A stretch of 64,000 nt of DNA, taken from Longimicrobiales bacterium (GTDB lineage Bacteria; Gemmatimonadota; Gemmatimonadetes; Longimicrobiales; Gaopeijiaceae). The stretch covers positions 3,072,001 through 3,136,000 of the forward strand of contig OZ241869.1 of NCBI GenBank assembly GCA_965202805.1. The letters run 5' to 3'. The number at the start of each line of letters is the position of its first letter. Positions within the stretch are counted from its first letter, which is position 1. A program made the position numbers and the translations under genes. Shown here piece by piece: positions 2,619 to 59,117 of this stretch. Below the pieces are notes generated by a model. That model worked only from the letters and a program-made list of their open reading frames with translations. It ran no database searches and was not told the origin of the DNA.

Positions 2619-3856
2619 GATACGGAGGCCCTGACGACGTACGGGACCTCGAACTCATCGACAACCCAGCCGTAGATGCTGCCGCGCCTGACCCGGATCG
2701 GGCCTGCCGCCTCGAAGGCGAGGCGAACGGAGCCCAGGTAGTCGCCGTCCTGCGAGTACAGGTCGTAGAAACCGGGCGCGTCCCCGGGCGTGACTCTCTC
2801 GACCCAGAGCCGGCCCTGGTCGTCGACGAAGAGACCCTGGAGAACGGGCTTGACGTCCGGGATCAGGGCGGCAGCTTCTTCCGCCACCCGGCGCAGGTCG
2901 GGGCTGTCTTCGACGATGCTCTCGACGTAGGCCGACCGGTCTTCGTCCGTGACCCGTTGCGCGGCAACCGCCGCGTCGATGACGACCAGCGTGTCCCCGC
3001 CCTCGCCTGTCCGCGCGATGCGGTACGACGCGTTGTGCGCGAGCCAGAATCCCCCGGACGGGTCTACCGCAGCTATCGCGAATGCCTGGAACGGAATGTC
3101 GCGGACTCCCGAGCGGGTGCCCGCCGTGTAGGCGTAGAACCGCCTGTTGATCTCACCGAGGTAGACCGAGTCGATGGCCCCGCTGGACAGGTCGTAGGAC
3201 TTGTAGTAGCGCCGGTACGTTACCGAGACCACGCCCGTCGGGGGCAGGTGGCGCGGTTCGTCTTCCGAATGGAAGGTCTCCTTCCAGTAACGGCTCGTTT
3301 TGTCGAACGCTCCGCTCCAGAAATCGCCGTAGCCCGAGACCGGCTTGTTGAACCTGCGTATCTCCTCTCCGTGGGGGTCCACCCCGATGATCGTCCCCTG
3401 GCTGTGGTTGGGGATCCACAGGAGGGTGTCTCCCGACAGGAAGATGCCGTTGGCCTCTCCAATCTCGCCCGGTCCCTCGCCCCGCCGCACGATCGTCCGC
3501 AGATACCGGCCCGCGGAGTCGAAGACACGGACCTCCGCCGCCTGGTAATCCAGCACATGGATGTCCCCGTCGCTGGAAGCCTCGATGCCCCGGATGTCCG
3601 CGAAGGCGAAGGCGGGATCGTCCCCTTCAAGGCTTCCGAACCAAAGGTTCACCCGCGCTTCCGTGACCTCGGGGCCGACGGAGTCGATGGCGGGAAGACC
3701 CGGATAGAGGACGAGGACCGCACCGTTCGGAAGCGTCTCCCGCGTCGGCTCCGCCGCCGGCGATTCCGGCTCGCAGGAGTGGAGGGCGGCGGCCAGCGCG
3801 AGGACGACAAGGGATGGACGGCGGGGCCGCGTGGATGCGCGTTCCGGGCGGGGCAT
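2615..3856 (-). CDS. 6-bladed beta-propeller (NHL-like) lipoprotein
   Basis: AGGAGG precedes ATG 3856; hydrophobic leader ending in Cys (LAAALHSC); FADIRGI, RRGEGPGE and VDDQGRLWV blade motifs. Confidence 0.75.
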   Translation of the reverse strand: MPRPERASTRPRRPSLVVLALAAALHSCEPESPAAEPTRETLPNGAVLVLYPGLPAIDSVGPEVTEARVNLWFGSLEGDDPAFAFADIRGIEASSDGDIHVLDYQAAEVRVFDSAGRYLRTIVRRGEGPGEIGEANGIFLSGDTLLWIPNHSQGTIIGVDPHGEEIRRFNKPVSGYGDFWSGAFDKTSRYWKETFHSEDEPRHLPPTGVVSVTYRRYYKSYDLSSGAIDSVYLGEINRRFYAYTAGTRSGVRDIPFQAFAIAAVDPSGGFWLAHNASYRIARTGEGGDTLVVIDAAVAAQRVTDEDRSAYVESIVEDSPDLRRVAEEAAALIPDVKPVLQGLFVDDQGRLWVERVTPGDAPGFYDLYSQDGDYLGSVRLAFEAAGPIRVRRGSIYGWVVDEFEVPYVVRASVS

Positions 3857-53820: not shown

Positions 53821-54855
53821 ATGATCCTTCCAGTCTCCAGACTCCCCTGGGTAGTCTCCAGGCTCCCCTGGGTGCTGCGTGCCGTTGGCCGGGTCTGCCC
53901 GCCTGCGGTCCTGCTTCTGGCCCTGGGTGCGTGGACGCAGGGAGCTCTCGCCCAGACCTATTCCCGCGGCCAGAACGTGGCTCCGGCCTTCGAGGGCTGG
54001 GAAAGGAACGAGGACGGCTCCTTCAACTTCCTGTTCGGCTACATGAACCGGAACTGGCTCGAGGAAGTCGATGTGCCGATCGGCGAAGACAACGCGTTCT
54101 CGCCCGGCCCGGCCGACCGCGGCCAGCCCACCCACTTCCTCCCCCGCCGCAACCGTTTCGTGTTCAAGGTGCGCGTGCCCCCCGACTGGGGCGACCGTGA
54201 ACTCGTGTGGACCTTGACCAGCAACGCGGTGACCGAGCGAGCCTACGCGACCCTGCGACCGGACTACATCGTGGACAACACGGTCGTCATGTCCGAGACC
54301 GGCGCTTTGGGGGCCGGATCGAGCAGCCCGGAGATGCGTGCGAACCAGCCGCCGGCGATCACCCTTGAGGGTCCGGCGGAGCGCGAGACCTCGGTTGGGC
54401 GACCGGTCACCATCACCGTGCTCGTAGAGGACGACGGCCTGTTGCGGCCTCGCCGCCGCCGTACGTCCCCACCCCCTGAGACGGCCGAGGATTCCGCGCG
54501 CGCCGACTCGATCTGGAACGCCCCCCCGACCTTCGGCCGCCGGCAGCTTGCGCCCCCGTCCCGCGTTACGGTCCAGAAGGTGAACGGCCTTTTCATGTCG
54601 TGGTTTCTCTACCGCGGCGAGGGCGAAGTCTCCTTCGACCCGCCCCAGGTGAAGGTGTGGGAGGACACCCGCACCGGCGCCAACTCCCCGTGGGCCCCGC
54701 TGTGGTTCCCACCCGACCCGCCGGAAGACGGCCGCTGGACGGTGAACATGACCTTCGACCAGCCCGGCACATACCTCCTGCGTGGCCGGGCCGACGACGG
54801 CGGCCTGTTCGCGGACGTGGAGTTGACGGTGGTGGTGCGGCCGGCGGCGAGCTGA
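53821..54855 (+). CDS. Secreted hypothetical protein with C-terminal Ig/PKD-like domain
   Basis: Signal peptide; PAFEGW..N.DG.F..LFGYMNRN; QPTHFLPRR; F..PGTYLLR..ADDG. Confidence 0.75.
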   Translation: MILPVSRLPWVVSRLPWVLRAVGRVCPPAVLLLALGAWTQGALAQTYSRGQNVAPAFEGWERNEDGSFNFLFGYMNRNWLEEVDVPIGEDNAFSPGPADRGQPTHFLPRRNRFVFKVRVPPDWGDRELVWTLTSNAVTERAYATLRPDYIVDNTVVMSETGALGAGSSSPEMRANQPPAITLEGPAERETSVGRPVTITVLVEDDGLLRPRRRRTSPPPETAEDSARADSIWNAPPTFGRRQLAPPSRVTVQKVNGLFMSWFLYRGEGEVSFDPPQVKVWEDTRTGANSPWAPLWFPPDPPEDGRWTVNMTFDQPGTYLLRGRADDGGLFADVELTVVVRPAAS

Positions 54856-54928
54856 GTTCGCCTTCGGCCAAACCAGGTCTCCGCGCGTCTGCCTGGTGGG
54901 TCGGCCACCGATGCCGGATGCCGCGTAT

Positions 54929-55678
54929 TCAGGATTGCTCCGCGTTCGGCAACCTGCCCTTGTTGACCGTGTACCAGACGCCCAGCGCTCCCAGCGCCGT
55001 CCACCCGATACTGTACGCGAGAATCTGCGCGAGCGGGATCCAGAAGGCATCGGACACGCCGACAAGGAAGGCACGGAATTCTCGAATGGCGGGAATCGGA
55101 ACGAGTATCGCCTCGAAGAGCCAATTCCACGGTCGACCGAGTAGATCGGGCAACGCCATTTGGGTGGCCACGGCTCCCACTGACAGAAAGCCGATCGCAA
55201 CCAGAGTCGACCCTCGCGAGATCCAGGAGGAGAAGCCAAACGTGAGACATGCCAGGACGAGCACATATGGGAGGGGGGCGAGTAGCGATCCGACCTCGCC
55301 GGATTCACCAAGCGCCGCTGTCCCCAGTCGAATCGCACCAAGAGCGAGCAGTGCGCATGCCAGCGCAACCAGGAGCCGCTCGCAAAACCCGCACAGATAG
55401 AAACGTACCGGATCGACTGGCTTTTGTAACCATAGTCGCGCCACACCAGTCCTGAAGTCTCCGGAAACAACGCCGGCGACGAAGATGAACGGAAGAGCAA
55501 GACAAAGCAGCGCATAGGTGTCGATCCAGCTCTCCAGCATGGCCGAGATATCGCCGCTGGTCAGGCTGCGAAACTCGGTAACCTGAATTGCCAGGACGGT
55601 CAGGATGAGCGCGTTGAAGCGGGATCGGATCAATAGGACGGTTCGTCTGGCGAAGGGAATATACATGTTAATGGTCAT
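54929..55678 (-). CDS. ABC-2 type transporter permease
   Basis: About 6 TMs; VSGDFRTG..RLWLQKPV motif; 1 nt downstream of the ABC ATPase. Confidence 0.75.
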   Translation of the reverse strand: MTINMYIPFARRTVLLIRSRFNALILTVLAIQVTEFRSLTSGDISAMLESWIDTYALLCLALPFIFVAGVVSGDFRTGVARLWLQKPVDPVRFYLCGFCERLLVALACALLALGAIRLGTAALGESGEVGSLLAPLPYVLVLACLTFGFSSWISRGSTLVAIGFLSVGAVATQMALPDLLGRPWNWLFEAILVPIPAIREFRAFLVGVSDAFWIPLAQILAYSIGWTALGALGVWYTVNKGRLPNAEQS

Positions 55679-55679
55679 C

Positions 55680-56405
55680 TCAGGTGAATTCAGACTCCAA
55701 TGCGGTCGCGACCGGTGCGTCAGCAGGCGTTAGGTTCGGGCCCGGACGAATCTTCCCGTTCTCCAGAATGAACGCCCGGTTGGCCAGTCGTTCGACTTCG
55801 GCAAGTTCGTGGCTGGCCAGCACCACTGTGGCGCCTCGTTGTCGGGCGTCGATGATTTCCTTTCGAAGGGCATGCCGAGAGGGCGGATCGAGCCCCGCGA
55901 ACGGTTCATCGAGCAACACGACTGCGGGCTCGCCAATCAGTGCGTAAGCCAAGGACAACCTCCGCTTCATCCCTCCTGAGTATCGTCGAGCGGCTCTCGC
56001 CAGGGCGGTGGAATCGAAGCGACTTCGAGCAACGGCTCTGCGATAGGCCTCGCGCCGCTCATTCGGCGGCAGGCGGCTAAGATCGACCCCACGACCGAGC
56101 AGATCGCGCGCGTTCCACAGGCGTGGAAACTGAATCGATTCGGGCTGGTATGCGATTCCGAACTGCTCCCGATAGTCCCCCGCCGGAATGCCACCGATGA
56201 GACACTGCCCGGCATCCGGCGTGAGGAATCCCAGGAGAGTTCTGAACAAGGTCGTCTTCCCTGCGCCGTTGGGTCCAACGATCGTAGTGACTTCACCGGG
56301 TCGGGCAGTAAGACTGATGTCTGATAGTACTCGGCGCGGGCGAAGCAGCTTCCTGTAAGAAACGCTAGCACCCTGGACGAGTATGTCTGCGGGGGGGTTG
56401 GCCAT
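55680..56405 (-). CDS. ABC transporter ATP-binding protein (exporter type)
   Basis: GPNGAGKTT, YSGGMKRR, LLDEP, ASH; ATG 1 nt after the upstream TAG. Confidence 0.92.
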   Translation of the reverse strand: MANPPADILVQGASVSYRKLLRPRRVLSDISLTARPGEVTTIVGPNGAGKTTLFRTLLGFLTPDAGQCLIGGIPAGDYREQFGIAYQPESIQFPRLWNARDLLGRGVDLSRLPPNERREAYRRAVARSRFDSTALARAARRYSGGMKRRLSLAYALIGEPAVVLLDEPFAGLDPPSRHALRKEIIDARQRGATVVLASHELAEVERLANRAFILENGKIRPGPNLTPADAPVATALESEFT

Positions 56406-56406
56406 C

Positions 56407-57516
56407 CTAGCGATTCTCCCGGGGATAGATGGCAATTCGGGTGCCTTCGATGTCTTCCCAACCTGCCAGCAGCGATTCGTCGTGTGCGAAGACGTATCTT
56501 GCGCGCGGGAGGGATTGCGTACGCCCACCCGCATAGGGCATGACCAGTTCATAGCTCTCCGGATCATCAGACACGAGCACTCGGTAAATCCAATCTTCGT
56601 CTGACGTTACGAAGACCGATACGAAGGGAAAGAACCGATCGGGAAGGACCCATTCAACATCGAGTCGACCCCGCAGCGCAGCTTCCATCTCGTTCACGGC
56701 CGCTCGCGGAGGGGTCATCGGTGTCAGCCAGTCGTGACAAACCGACTCAAGCACCTCGCCTCCTGTATGGTAGACACTCAGACATTCCTCTCGAGCACTG
56801 CCAAACACGAATCCGTCCGGGTGCGCGCTCAGCAGGGGTGGGGTGAAGGCGTCGACGACAACGGGTCCGTCGCGCGCGGGGAGCCGCGTGGCGACGGTCC
56901 TGATGAATCCATCCGTTGTTTCGAGAAGCACCCGGGATTCAACTCGCATGTCCGCTTGCGTGCAGGTCACCAGGAAAAACAGGCCCACGGATGCCGAGGC
57001 GACATCAAGGATCTGCGGCACCAGGCACGCATCGAGGCGGAGCAGGCGCTCCTCGATGGGAGCCCCCTCAAGGGAGTACAAGTGAAAATAGTTCACGCCG
57101 TGTTCCGTCACTACGATGGTATCCCCATGCAAACCGATGGCAGTTGGTAGCCCTCTGAATTCTCCGGGTCCACCGCCTTCTCTGCCGAAACTCCCCAACA
57201 ACGTTCCGTCGGAAGCGATTCGATGAACCTGGCTTCCGATGATGTCCAGCACGAACCAGATGCCGTTGTGGAACACCGCATCTTCCACCGACAGCACATT
57301 CTGAAAGAGAGGAGTCCCCGGAGGCGCTTCAAGGGGTTGTCGCGCTTGCAAGACCTCGCTCGAGTTGCCATTGGGATCTTCGTTCGTGCGAGTATCAGTC
57401 CGACCCCGCCAGACATCTATTACGCTCCACAATAGAGCGAGTGCAGCGGTCGCGAGCGCAACCCACACCAACCATGGGGCAAGCGGTCCACGGACCCTTT
57501 CTGTCGTGACGCTCAT
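56407..57516 (-). CDS. Membrane-anchored 6-bladed beta-propeller protein
   Basis: AGGAG RBS; N-terminal TM; FGREGGGPGEF motif; 4 Cys. Confidence 0.75.
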   Translation of the reverse strand: MSVTTERVRGPLAPWLVWVALATAALALLWSVIDVWRGRTDTRTNEDPNGNSSEVLQARQPLEAPPGTPLFQNVLSVEDAVFHNGIWFVLDIIGSQVHRIASDGTLLGSFGREGGGPGEFRGLPTAIGLHGDTIVVTEHGVNYFHLYSLEGAPIEERLLRLDACLVPQILDVASASVGLFFLVTCTQADMRVESRVLLETTDGFIRTVATRLPARDGPVVVDAFTPPLLSAHPDGFVFGSAREECLSVYHTGGEVLESVCHDWLTPMTPPRAAVNEMEAALRGRLDVEWVLPDRFFPFVSVFVTSDEDWIYRVLVSDDPESYELVMPYAGGRTQSLPRARYVFAHDESLLAGWEDIEGTRIAIYPRENR

Positions 57517-57805
57517 GAATGTCAGCTCCTATTCGCGAGAGTTATGGATTGCGTCAGGGAAGCCAAGGCGTCGACAGTCCTCACGATCCATGGCATCCCA
57601 GCGTCATCGGCTCTCTACCATGATCGCCCAATCCTTGCGTGTTGACCATGCCTGGATGAGAACCCGAGGGTGGCAATTGTAACGAATGTGGTGGCCGGAG
57701 ATCGCATGAAGGTCATCTGGGCCTGGTCGGGCGCTCCAGGTCCGGAACTCCCACCGGACCTGGAGCAACCCCGCCAACCGCAATGCTGACTCGCCACCCC
57801 ATACT

Positions 57806-58099
57806 CTAGTTGAAGAGAATGGCCTTGTAGAGTGTGGCGCTGCAACCTGCGGCGTCAAAGCCCCAGAAGAGTCGGCAACCTATCCGACCCCTGGTGTTCT
57901 GTCCTGCGCTACACTGTGCCAAAGCGTCATCGGCAGCGTCCATGCACTTATAGTACTTTTCGCTGGGGGTGCAGTCACGGGACGTGCCATCTCGGTTTGT
58001 GCACTCCGCGAGCAGCGGTCCAGCTCCAAGAGCCAGAGCCGTTACGAGGGCGAGACCGAGTCCCGTGGTTCGCATTAGAAGATTTCTTGCGCGCATCAT
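57806..58099 (-). CDS. Secreted Cys-rich peptide A (twin CX10C, 6 Cys)
   Basis: GGGAGA RBS; Sec signal ending PLLA; paralogous to the 58228 ORF. Confidence 0.75.
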   Translation of the reverse strand: MMRARNLLMRTTGLGLALVTALALGAGPLLAECTNRDGTSRDCTPSEKYYKCMDAADDALAQCSAGQNTRGRIGCRLFWGFDAAGCSATLYKAILFN

Positions 58100-58227
58100 G
58101 GATATTCTCCCGTGGGTCTAGGTGGATGATCAGATGGAGGCCGTAGCATCTGTTGCTCAGGCCAGATCGATGCCGCCGTCCGCGCTGGTCGGAAACACGG
58201 CCGGGACGATCAGAAAGAGATCAGTGG

Positions 58228-58455
58228 TTAGGTGACGCAATCTGCCGCGTCGAAGATCAGAATAGCCGTGCAGGTGATACGGTCCCAGAAGCTGTTTGCC
58301 TCCCCGAGGCATTCGCCGTAGTCCTCTACCGCTTCGCCCAGGCACCCCTTGAAGACTTTCTCCTGTGCGCCCAACGGCGGTCCGGCGGCCAGTGCGGCCG
58401 CCAGAGCGAGCCCCGCTCCGGTCAAGCGTACGAATCGTTTCGTTGTTCCGATCAT
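58228..58455 (-). CDS. Secreted Cys-rich peptide B (twin CX10C, 4 Cys)
   Basis: AGGAG RBS; Sec signal ending PLGA; shares FDAAxC with peptide A. Confidence 0.75.
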   Translation of the reverse strand: MIGTTKRFVRLTGAGLALAAALAAGPPLGAQEKVFKGCLGEAVEDYGECLGEANSFWDRITCTAILIFDAADCVT

Positions 58456-58910
58456 GGCTCTCTCCTGCTATGGTTGTGACTGTGCCGGCCGTCCTGTCGG
58501 CCTGCGTGAGCGGAACAGCCGATTCGCGCGAGCCCTTGGATCGCACCGCGACGGCATCTCGGGAGCTGTATCACGTCGGGTTCGGGCTTGGTGTTGTCGA
58601 CATGGTATGCTCGGTGGGGTGGCGGTCAGCGCGGCTCCTCCTCGTGCTCTTCGCGAGCGAACCCGGAGCCCGGCATCCGCGAATCGGTGGCTGTTCGCGG
58701 GTCACCCATCCACAGCCCGTACCGAAGTACGAATCACGGGCGACTCAATGGCTGGATGCGCCGACATCGACGCGTCGGGCGGGTGTAGACCCATCGCACC
58801 GGTGTCCACTCAGCAGAGAGGCGTTAACTTGACACCCCGGCCAGGCCCGGAAACTTCGGCGAGGGACGGACGTACGGCGGCGGACACGAACCGGACGAAC
58901 GGAGAGGGAA

Positions 58911-59117
58911 ATGAAGAGGTTTGCTCAGTTGTCCGTGGCGGGAATCGCCGCGGTTCTGCTTCTGAAGCTGCTGGGGGTGATCGTCGTCCCCCTGCTCGGG
59001 CTCCTGGCGACGGCCTTCGCCTTTGGATTCAAGCTGCTGCTGATCGCCGGAGCCGTCTGGCTTGTCTGGACGCTGCTCCGGAAGAGCGGCTGTTGCGGAA
59101 CCCGCGACGAGGAGTAG
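58911..59117 (+). CDS. Small membrane protein (68 aa)
   Basis: GGAGAGGG RBS; long hydrophobic stretch; charged tail with CC. Confidence 0.7.
   Translation: MKRFAQLSVAGIAAVLLLKLLGVIVVPLLGLLATAFAFGFKLLLIAGAVWLVWTLLRKSGCCGTRDEE

Follow-up and report, generated by a model that had tools for sequence, protein, structure and literature searches.

Here we describe two small cysteine-rich exported proteins, peptides A and B, from a Longimicrobiales bacterium of the phylum Gemmatimonadota. The DNA analyzed (hereafter the window) is a stretch of 64,000 nucleotides (nt) of contig OZ241869.1, positions 3,072,001 to 3,136,000, and all coordinates are counted from its first letter. The genes of A and B are adjacent on the minus strand and head a five-gene cassette that continues with a six-bladed beta-propeller protein, an ATP-binding cassette (ABC) ATPase and an ABC-2-type permease. 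Lengths of proteins are given in amino acids (aa).

58228..58455, minus strand: peptide B gene; 75-aa precursor with a signal peptide of about 30 aa and an acidic mature part of 45 aa; 4-Cys type
57806..58099, minus strand: peptide A gene; precursor of 97 aa (signal peptide 31 aa, mature part 66 aa); 6-Cys type

Peptides A and B

A first-pass annotation, made from the letters of the window, had placed two open reading frames (ORFs) here, each with a ribosome-binding site. Both were recovered at these coordinates, with purine-rich sites (GGGAGAA for A and AGGAGAG for B) 7–9 nt upstream of the ATG. It had also described similar signal peptides followed by mature parts of about 66 and 45 aa, and we agree. 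The N-termini, assigned by eye and from hydrophobicity, start with a basic n-region and continue through a hydrophobic core to a cleavage context of the form LxA (LLA followed by EC in A, LGA followed by QE in B), and the two signal peptides are near-identical. Sec-type signals are thereby supported for A and B. In A a Cys stands right after the signal, and a lipoprotein was considered and rejected, because the residue at position -1 is E, Q, N or D in most members of the family. The Cys residues of A are at positions 33, 43, 52, 63, 75 and 86 (spacings X9, X8, X10, X11 and X10), and those of B read C38-X10-C49-X12-C62-X10-C73. The common C-X10-C-X11/12-C-X10-C arrangement, the FDAAxC that closes the Cys motif in both peptides and the extra CX9C pair of A were thus correctly noticed at first sight.

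This arrangement is rare in the genome (4.02 Mb, 68.4% GC). Among 21,128 six-frame ORFs of 40–200 aa, only 15 contained C-X10-C-X9-16-C-X10-C. The adjacent A and B were the only ones of the 15 with a hydrophobic N-terminus, while the remaining 13 were Arg/Ser/Pro-rich off-frame ORFs. The signal motif LAL..ALALGAGP.LA was also confined to A and B genome-wide. A chance origin of the A/B pattern is excluded.

The first-pass annotation regarded A and B as paralogs. A BLASTP comparison of the two was insignificant (E 9.4), and in single-sequence searches of the genome neither peptide retrieved its partner. Profile comparison with hhalign gave 98.8% (E 1.2e-16) over the full length and, with the shared signal removed, 96.7% (E 3.9e-10) for the mature cores, with the four Cys in register. 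By this alignment of profiles A and B are paralogs. Among related genomes, A has 13 orthologs (49–91% identity) and B has 14 (64–88% identity), and all Cys of A and all four of B are invariant. Pairwise dN/dS (nonsynonymous over synonymous substitution rates) among genus members was 0.18–0.72, so both genes appear to be coding and under purifying rather than diversifying selection. The family had initially been called "diversifying", a description that these values do not bear out.

The twin-CX10C family and its predicted fold

To place the pair in a family, a profile of a 22-sequence core alignment was searched against 1.84 billion representative proteins. It matched 113 representative clusters at E<=1e-3, 3 of them at E<=1e-10. 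The C-X10-C-X9-16-C-X10-C pattern was kept in 111 of the 112 matches examined, the outcome anticipated when a profile search for homologs keeping the Cys spacing was first suggested. The members are nearly all 45–217 aa long with a hydrophobic N-terminus. Two longer matches, P0057 (1775 aa) and P0093 (410 aa, a eukaryotic Alg14-like protein), were treated as spurious. The hairpin loop is 11–13 residues long throughout the 112 domains, and 85 of these have exactly 12. An extra N-terminal Cys pair was present in 46 of the 112 (6-Cys type, like A), and the others were of the 4-Cys type, like B. In an alignment of 53 sequences of the 6-Cys type, R10, C12, E16, C21, C32, C44 and C55 were invariant and T13 was kept in at least 90%, giving an R-x-C-T-x-x-E motif ahead of the first helix. 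The domains are mostly acidic: a net positive charge was found in 6 of the 112, the 4-Cys type had a median of -4 and the 6-Cys type one of -7, and B itself has a net charge of -6. As a variation on the 6-Cys type, members from another genus of the family Gaopeijiaceae (L042, L043, L045, L051, L059–L061) carry a 40–60-aa Ala/Pro-rich linker with one extra Cys between the signal and the domain.

Apart from chance rows, no model of Pfam matched A or B at E<=0.1 or the 22 core sequences at E<=1, and NCBIfam gave no match for the peptides at the thresholds used. A Yeast-kill-tox match of A (E 0.072, 14.2 bits against a cut-off of 23) and a DUF1482 row among the core sequences were treated as chance. 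PF14055 (NVEALA) matched neither A, B nor any of the 22. The pair had been expected to escape standard annotation. This is correct as regards family models; gene calling, on the other hand, has not missed them, since relatives are already in public protein collections, where their names, if given, are "hypothetical protein". Close relatives fall in the order Longimicrobiales of the Gemmatimonadota. Among 401 genomes sampled from the phylum, 20 had a family match: 18 of the 69 other genomes of the same family, the genome studied and one genome of another family. A literature search, for which subscription journals were largely outside the scope, showed no bacterial CX10C family among the papers listed. 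Taken on their sequences, A and B belong to an unannotated family of exported twin-CX10C proteins with the signature C-X10-C-X11-13-C-X10-C.

The structural check suggested at the outset also came out in favor of a helical hairpin. AlphaFold2 modeled the core of B as a helix (2–21), a turn and a second helix (25–43), with a predicted local distance difference test (pLDDT) of 84.7. For mature A the pLDDT was 95.6 and the predicted template modeling score 0.76, with strands at 2–3 and 9–10 and helices at 14–33 and 38–64. In this model a short N-terminal CX9C beta-hairpin, bracketed by C2 and C12, precedes the helical hairpin. A disulfide-stapled helix-turn-helix hairpin is therefore confidently predicted for both peptides. 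The positions of the Cys point to how it may be stapled. In B they add up as 7 + 42 = 18 + 31 = 49 and in A as 21 + 55 = 32 + 44 = 76; equal sums mean that each pair is symmetric about the turn, as nested C1–C4 and C2–C3 staples require. From this geometry we infer the nested connectivity. A member in genome G034 (L018, about 1870–2130) has lost C2 and C3 together and kept C1, C4 and the N-terminal pair, and this natural double mutant is consistent with C2–C3 pairing. As for oxidation capacity, four DsbA-like genes in the genome exceed the Pfam cut-off; VKOR was not found.

With Foldseek, neither model had a PDB match at E<=1e-3 (best E 2.2), and a wide VIA-align comparison returned only generic helical hairpins (Z 6.3–6.9, below the level meaningful for helical folds). 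A PDB sequence search with the core profile gave chance rows of G protein-coupled receptors only and no solved CHCH chain at E<=10. For A, the ESM Atlas gave unnamed clusters (best score 0.85), which were uninformative.

The first-pass annotation had called the peptides CHCH-like. In mitochondrial CHCH proteins such as COA6, Cox17 and Mia40 substrates, as in the models of A and B, a helix-turn-helix carries two Cys per helix placed for nested C1–C4/C2–C3 pairs, and disulfides stabilize the CHCH fold of COA6 (PMC6946597). The likeness stops at the fold. The family has CX10C on both helices in 111 of 112 members, whereas CHCH proteins have CX9C, and no CHCH, Cox17 or Cmc1-type Pfam model was matched by A or B at E<=0.1 or by the 22 core sequences at E<=1. 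The peptides are bacterial, would be exported by Sec rather than imported through Mia40, and have a propeller and an ABC-2 pump as genomic partners. The resemblance to CHCH is thus accepted for the predicted fold and rejected for membership, and is most likely an analogy of fold reached by convergence.

The same resemblance raises the question of whether A and B are periplasmic redox or metal proteins that pass electrons, or a metal such as copper, on to a client in the manner of COA6, Cox17 or Mia40. The paired Cys on facing helices of the predicted hairpin would suit such a role, invariant Cys and His occur in the neighboring propeller, and CHCH domains act as thiol-disulfide oxidoreductases (COA6, PMC6946597). 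However, besides the CX10C spacing and the lack of a CHCH-type Pfam match in 22 members at E<=1, there is no additional CxxC or CPC active-site motif, and searches of the cassette with Pfam and NCBIfam found no copper, cytochrome or redox partner genes. A patchily distributed gene pair in a low-GC island also fits a core redox function poorly. We consider this explanation highly improbable.

The cassette, its conservation and its exchange

What the first-pass annotation missed was the decisive context, a conserved low-GC cassette (about 59% GC against 68%) that joins the peptides to a six-bladed propeller and an ABC-2 pump. The order of the five genes on the minus strand is B, A, propeller, ABC ATPase and ABC-2 permease, and the further features are the following (TM, transmembrane).

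56407..57516, minus strand: propeller protein, 369 aa; N-terminal TM anchor and six-bladed NHL/DUF5128-like beta-propeller
55680..56405, minus strand: ABC transporter ATPase of the DrrA/NodI type; Pfam ABC_tran, E 2.7e-26
54929..55678, minus strand: ABC-2-type permease, 249 aa; weak ABC2_membrane_3 match, E 0.024
57517..57805, minus strand: spacer of 289 nt from A to the propeller gene; columns of a four-genome alignment of 57500–57830 average 89% identity
57733..57766, minus strand: GC-rich stem, perfect over 13 bp, with an 8-nt loop; 39 nt past the stop codon of A; no U-tract
54900..58500, no strand: low-GC island over the five genes; GC 0.58–0.63 against 0.65–0.73 in the flanks and 0.684 in the genome

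The arrangement is conserved. Peptide gene or genes, propeller, ATPase and permease had the same order in all five loci of the genus that were examined. In other genera a propeller or pump gene lay within 1.5 kb of the peptide gene in G021, G034, G036, G022, G185, G272 and G171, and further in G274, G338, G377, G425, G122 and G235. One genus has a second peptide gene after the permease. In the genus of the linker-bearing members, peptide genes stand on both sides of the propeller–pump unit. Among the 19 genomes of the window's own genus, the same 11 have peptide A (E<1e-30) and the single-copy propeller; the remaining 8, including two 100% complete single-contig genomes, showed neither. Both flanks were kept in the four cassette-less genomes examined. 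In G016, four flanking genes were 80–96% identical, while A and the propeller were 48% identical each and the ATPase and permease 68% each.

In at least two genomes, G018 (L069, 3656–6072) and G002 (L071, 4408–6811), a different cassette occupies the same slot. Its two small ORFs, also Cys-rich and preceded by signal peptides, measure 150 and 103 aa in G018. They are accompanied by a membrane protein of about 175 aa, whose likeness to a thioredoxin fold was judged only by eye, and by a lipoprotein of 346 aa. The NHL/PQQ_2-like propeller of this lipoprotein has a G.GPGE motif in common with the propeller of the window. The cassette is thus conserved across genera and is swapped, in sister species, for another cassette of Cys-rich peptides plus propeller.

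These data bear on whether the adjacency of the genes means anything at all. It might be inherited gene order, in which case the hairpins would be independent periplasmic proteins, for instance inhibitors or structural proteins, that have nothing to do with the propeller and the pump. The separation of A from the propeller gene by 289 nt and a strong RNA hairpin would agree with this, as would peptides without an adjacent propeller in two genomes (G035 and G054); some of the synteny is simply inherited, since the neighboring potassium (K+) channel and DEAD-box helicase genes are also syntenic across genera. However, the low-GC island is common to all five genes and not to the flanks, and the five occur or are missing together while the flanks remain. 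The cassette genes also diverge together, much faster than the flanks, and the replacement cassette again couples Cys-rich peptides with a propeller. Mere inheritance of gene order is quite unlikely on this evidence.

The propeller has four invariant Cys and two invariant His (His232 and His261). Its match to Pfam DUF5128 (E 0.013, 15.1 bits) was below the cut-off of 22.9, and a precomputed PF17170 assignment was present on 6 of the 64 listed propeller matches, among which is the protein of the window. The nearest Atlas clusters were DUF5128/NHL, with DUF5128 in 21–100% of their members. All NCBIfam matches of the ATPase were below their cut-offs, including that to the lantibiotic-protection ATPase model (101.7 bits against 309.75). 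PADLOC returned only generic P-loop matches to the ATPase. The ATPase likely starts at the ATG at 56405, since alignments of its orthologs begin near residue 33–55 of the long ORF. That ATG is 1 nt after the TAG of the propeller gene, which suggests translational coupling. The ATG of the permease is likewise 1 nt past the stop codon of the ATPase, and the two genes adjoin in relatives. In a metagenomic protein, P0195 (608 aa), one gene call spans a DUF5128 propeller and an ABC ATPase; the two may be truly fused, or the call may read through the 1-nt junction.

The 289-nt spacer is unusually well conserved, no less so than the coding sequence of A, and may act as a regulatory element or a 5' untranslated region. 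Its whole-length fold had a z-score of only -1.63, and Rfam gave no match on it at E<=1 (one chance-level match lay elsewhere). The 57733..57766 stem appears in this fold and is kept in four genomes of the genus; it was not listed by the consensus terminator scan, which listed no terminators on the minus strand, and is possibly a terminator, an attenuator or a stabilizer of the transcript. A scan for sigma-70-like promoters found no site. The stretch occurs in two listed runs, both contigs of one study, and in no listed RNA run.

Some further observations concern the surroundings of the cassette. A perfect 16-nt inverted repeat (54453–54468 and 58868–58883) brackets it with 4399 nt between the arms; one arm is inside the flanking 344-aa gene, and the repeat may be due to chance. 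On the plus strand, at 58911–59117, a 68-aa protein with two TM segments that ends in SGCCGTRDEE is encoded beside the K+ channel gene in all genus members examined. It is present with or without the cassette and is therefore probably not part of it. The genome as a whole has about 26 DUF5128/NHL-like six-bladed propeller genes, 14 of which exceed the Pfam cut-off on their own. Some are arranged in tandem, as in a row of five at G000:C1 3905087–3910386, and another is in the window at about 3380–3604. Between the propeller genes near 3607479 and 3613146, a 70-aa ORF on the minus strand (G000:C1:3610119–3610331) combines a signal peptide with an acidic tail containing 6 Cys and may be a further peptide–propeller pair. 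A genome-wide screen for Cys-rich ORFs with signals beside propellers gave one candidate and much noise.

Possible roles of the hairpins, the propeller and the pump

Gemmatimonadota are Gram-negative, diderm bacteria, and this matters for any role assigned to exported peptides. Tandem small peptide genes ahead of an ABC-2 ATPase/permease pair recall bacteriocin loci. The hairpins would then be toxins against relatives, A and B maybe acting as a two-peptide system, and the propeller and pump would serve self-protection or export, in the way of LanFEG-type pumps for lantibiotics. Several features agree with this: the partial, below-cut-off likeness of the ATPase to the lantibiotic-protection model, the patchy accessory distribution (11 of 19 genus genomes and 20 of 401 in the phylum sample), the low-GC island in a polymorphic slot, the rapid divergence of the cassette relative to its flanks, and the strong RNA hairpin downstream of the peptide genes. 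There is also a precedent for two-peptide bacteriocins with disulfide-stapled helical hairpins. Gallocin A (GllA1/GllA2) is encoded by adjacent genes for small exported peptides modeled as disulfide-stabilized alpha-helical hairpins, and an ABC transporter belongs to the system (10.1101/2022.12.05.519244), so that A and B resemble it in all three respects. However, each gallocin peptide has a single disulfide and few charged residues, its double-glycine leader is removed by a transporter of the BlpAB type, and immunity comes from a small hairpin peptide. A and B would have two or three disulfides, with a Sec-type signal, acidic domains, no C39 domain, a propeller partner and a diderm host.

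The differences from bacteriocins go further. Against the pattern of class IIb, there is no double-glycine leader, no small immunity ORF was identified in the cassette, and G009 and G016 carry only one peptide. The ATPase has no C39 peptidase domain by Pfam. In a diderm, Sec leads only to the periplasm, and the cassette has no component for export across the outer membrane. Genomes with immunity only were not found, the propeller being absent from all 8 peptide-less genus members. Given the rarity of net-positive domains, the charge of B and dN/dS values below 1, a bacteriocin-like role is unlikely. The acidic domains and the purifying selection together leave the first-pass view of diversifying antimicrobial effectors without support, and an antimicrobial, membrane-permeabilizing action in particular is disfavored by the charge.

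Other hairpin mini-proteins help to delimit the family. Glycocins (sublancin, glycocin F) and plant alpha-hairpinins are helical hairpins with nested disulfides and with CX6C and CX3C spacing. A glycosyltransferase and a C39 ABC exporter are required in glycocin loci, whereas the cassette has neither by Pfam, and A and B have Sec-like leaders and CX10C spacing. The heat-stable enterotoxin b (STb) of Escherichia coli is a further example. It is exported by Sec, oxidized by DsbA, 48 aa long and made of two helices, and its nested disulfides C10–C48 and C21–C36 give C-X10-C-X14-C-X11-C. STb is expelled from the periplasm by MacAB-TolC, a precedent for an ABC pump that handles a periplasmic disulfide mini-protein. 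In contrast to STb, A and B match no enterotoxin or other Pfam model (E<=0.1 to 1), their family is acidic and has so far been seen only in Longimicrobiales-like genomes, and the pump, of a small ABC-2 type, lacks a MacB-like periplasmic domain and has no TolC partner in the cassette.

Alternatively, A and B could be signals or effectors released toward a host or a neighboring organism, with the propeller as their receptor or processing partner. The products are small, exported and disulfide-stabilized, so likely protease-resistant, their distribution is accessory and lineage-restricted, and the propeller belongs to an expanded family in this genome. On the other hand, the cassette contains no sensor kinase, regulator or outer-membrane secretion gene, and selection on the peptides is purifying. 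The "secreted effector" of the first-pass annotation is unproven, as a Sec signal in a diderm phylum delivers to the periplasm only, and we regard a role as released signals or effectors as very unlikely.

A different parallel comes from Bacteroidales, where, in NVEALA/DUF5128 neighborhoods, a gene for a small exported Cys-rich protein directly precedes a six-bladed propeller gene. The cassette has the same arrangement, with a DUF5128/NHL-type propeller, and so has the replacement cassette in the G018/G002 slot. It departs from such cassettes in that its peptides are helical and of the twin-CX10C type, its propeller is TM-anchored rather than a lipoprotein, and it couples an ABC-2 pump instead of a thioredoxin or DsbA gene. 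No paper naming NVEALA, DUF5128 or PF17170 was found within the scope of the literature search.

Considering these comparisons, we favor the explanation that the exported hairpins A and B are dedicated envelope binding partners of the TM-anchored propeller and the ABC-2 pump, and we assign it a probability of about 0.5. The precursors would be exported by Sec, cleaved after LxA and oxidized in the periplasm, with disulfides C1–C4 and C2–C3 and, in the 6-Cys type, a separate one closing the N-terminal beta-hairpin. The expected bonds are C52–C86, C63–C75 and C33–C43 for A, and C38–C73 and C49–C62 for B. The ectodomain of the propeller would bind the hairpins. Least certain is the part of the coupled ABC-2 pump, which would act in the same pathway and may move or expel either the hairpin or a co-substrate. 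The cassette would be an accessory, horizontally exchanged module that serves interaction with cells or the environment and not core physiology.

Several points weigh against this explanation. Related genomes are not independent, so their co-occurrence overstates the support. The 289-nt gap and the strong RNA hairpin before the propeller gene allow separate transcription, and the disulfide connectivity is inferred from model geometry. In G035 the two peptides are not on the contig that has the propeller, and in G054, where two 4-Cys members stand in tandem, no propeller was matched at E<=1e-10. In G008 (L016, 4191–5717) and G011 (L017, 7060–8947), A and B are found in a decayed second cassette without a propeller of its own. 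Around this copy lie pieces of the 68-aa gene, the 344-aa neighbor and the C-terminal part of the ABC-2 permease, which are signs of duplication and deletion at the slot, and it adjoins a full cassette headed by a third, 84-aa paralog of the 4-Cys type.

Disulfide-stapled helical-hairpin mini-proteins that are exported are a kind already known; the cassette that joins A and B to a propeller and an ABC-2 pump is undescribed, and no paper on it was found within the scope of the literature search. Beyond the binding of hairpins by the propeller, we tentatively suggest a wider possibility, itself rather doubtful, that the hairpins are a bacterial reinvention of the CHCH type as exchangeable ligands of propellers, and that the slot-swapping cassettes are undescribed polymorphic envelope systems of Gemmatimonadota for cell–cell recognition or competition, here equipped with an ABC-2 pump. 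The family itself has a strict signature, about 110 sequence clusters and a confident hairpin model, and it lies outside the curated families. Its members are small and probably very stable scaffolds, which may be of practical interest for peptide engineering. If the pairing of hairpin and propeller is real, it would offer a handle on the expanded and functionally blank propellers of Gemmatimonadota, and it would bear on how these mostly uncultured bacteria use disulfide-rich mini-proteins.

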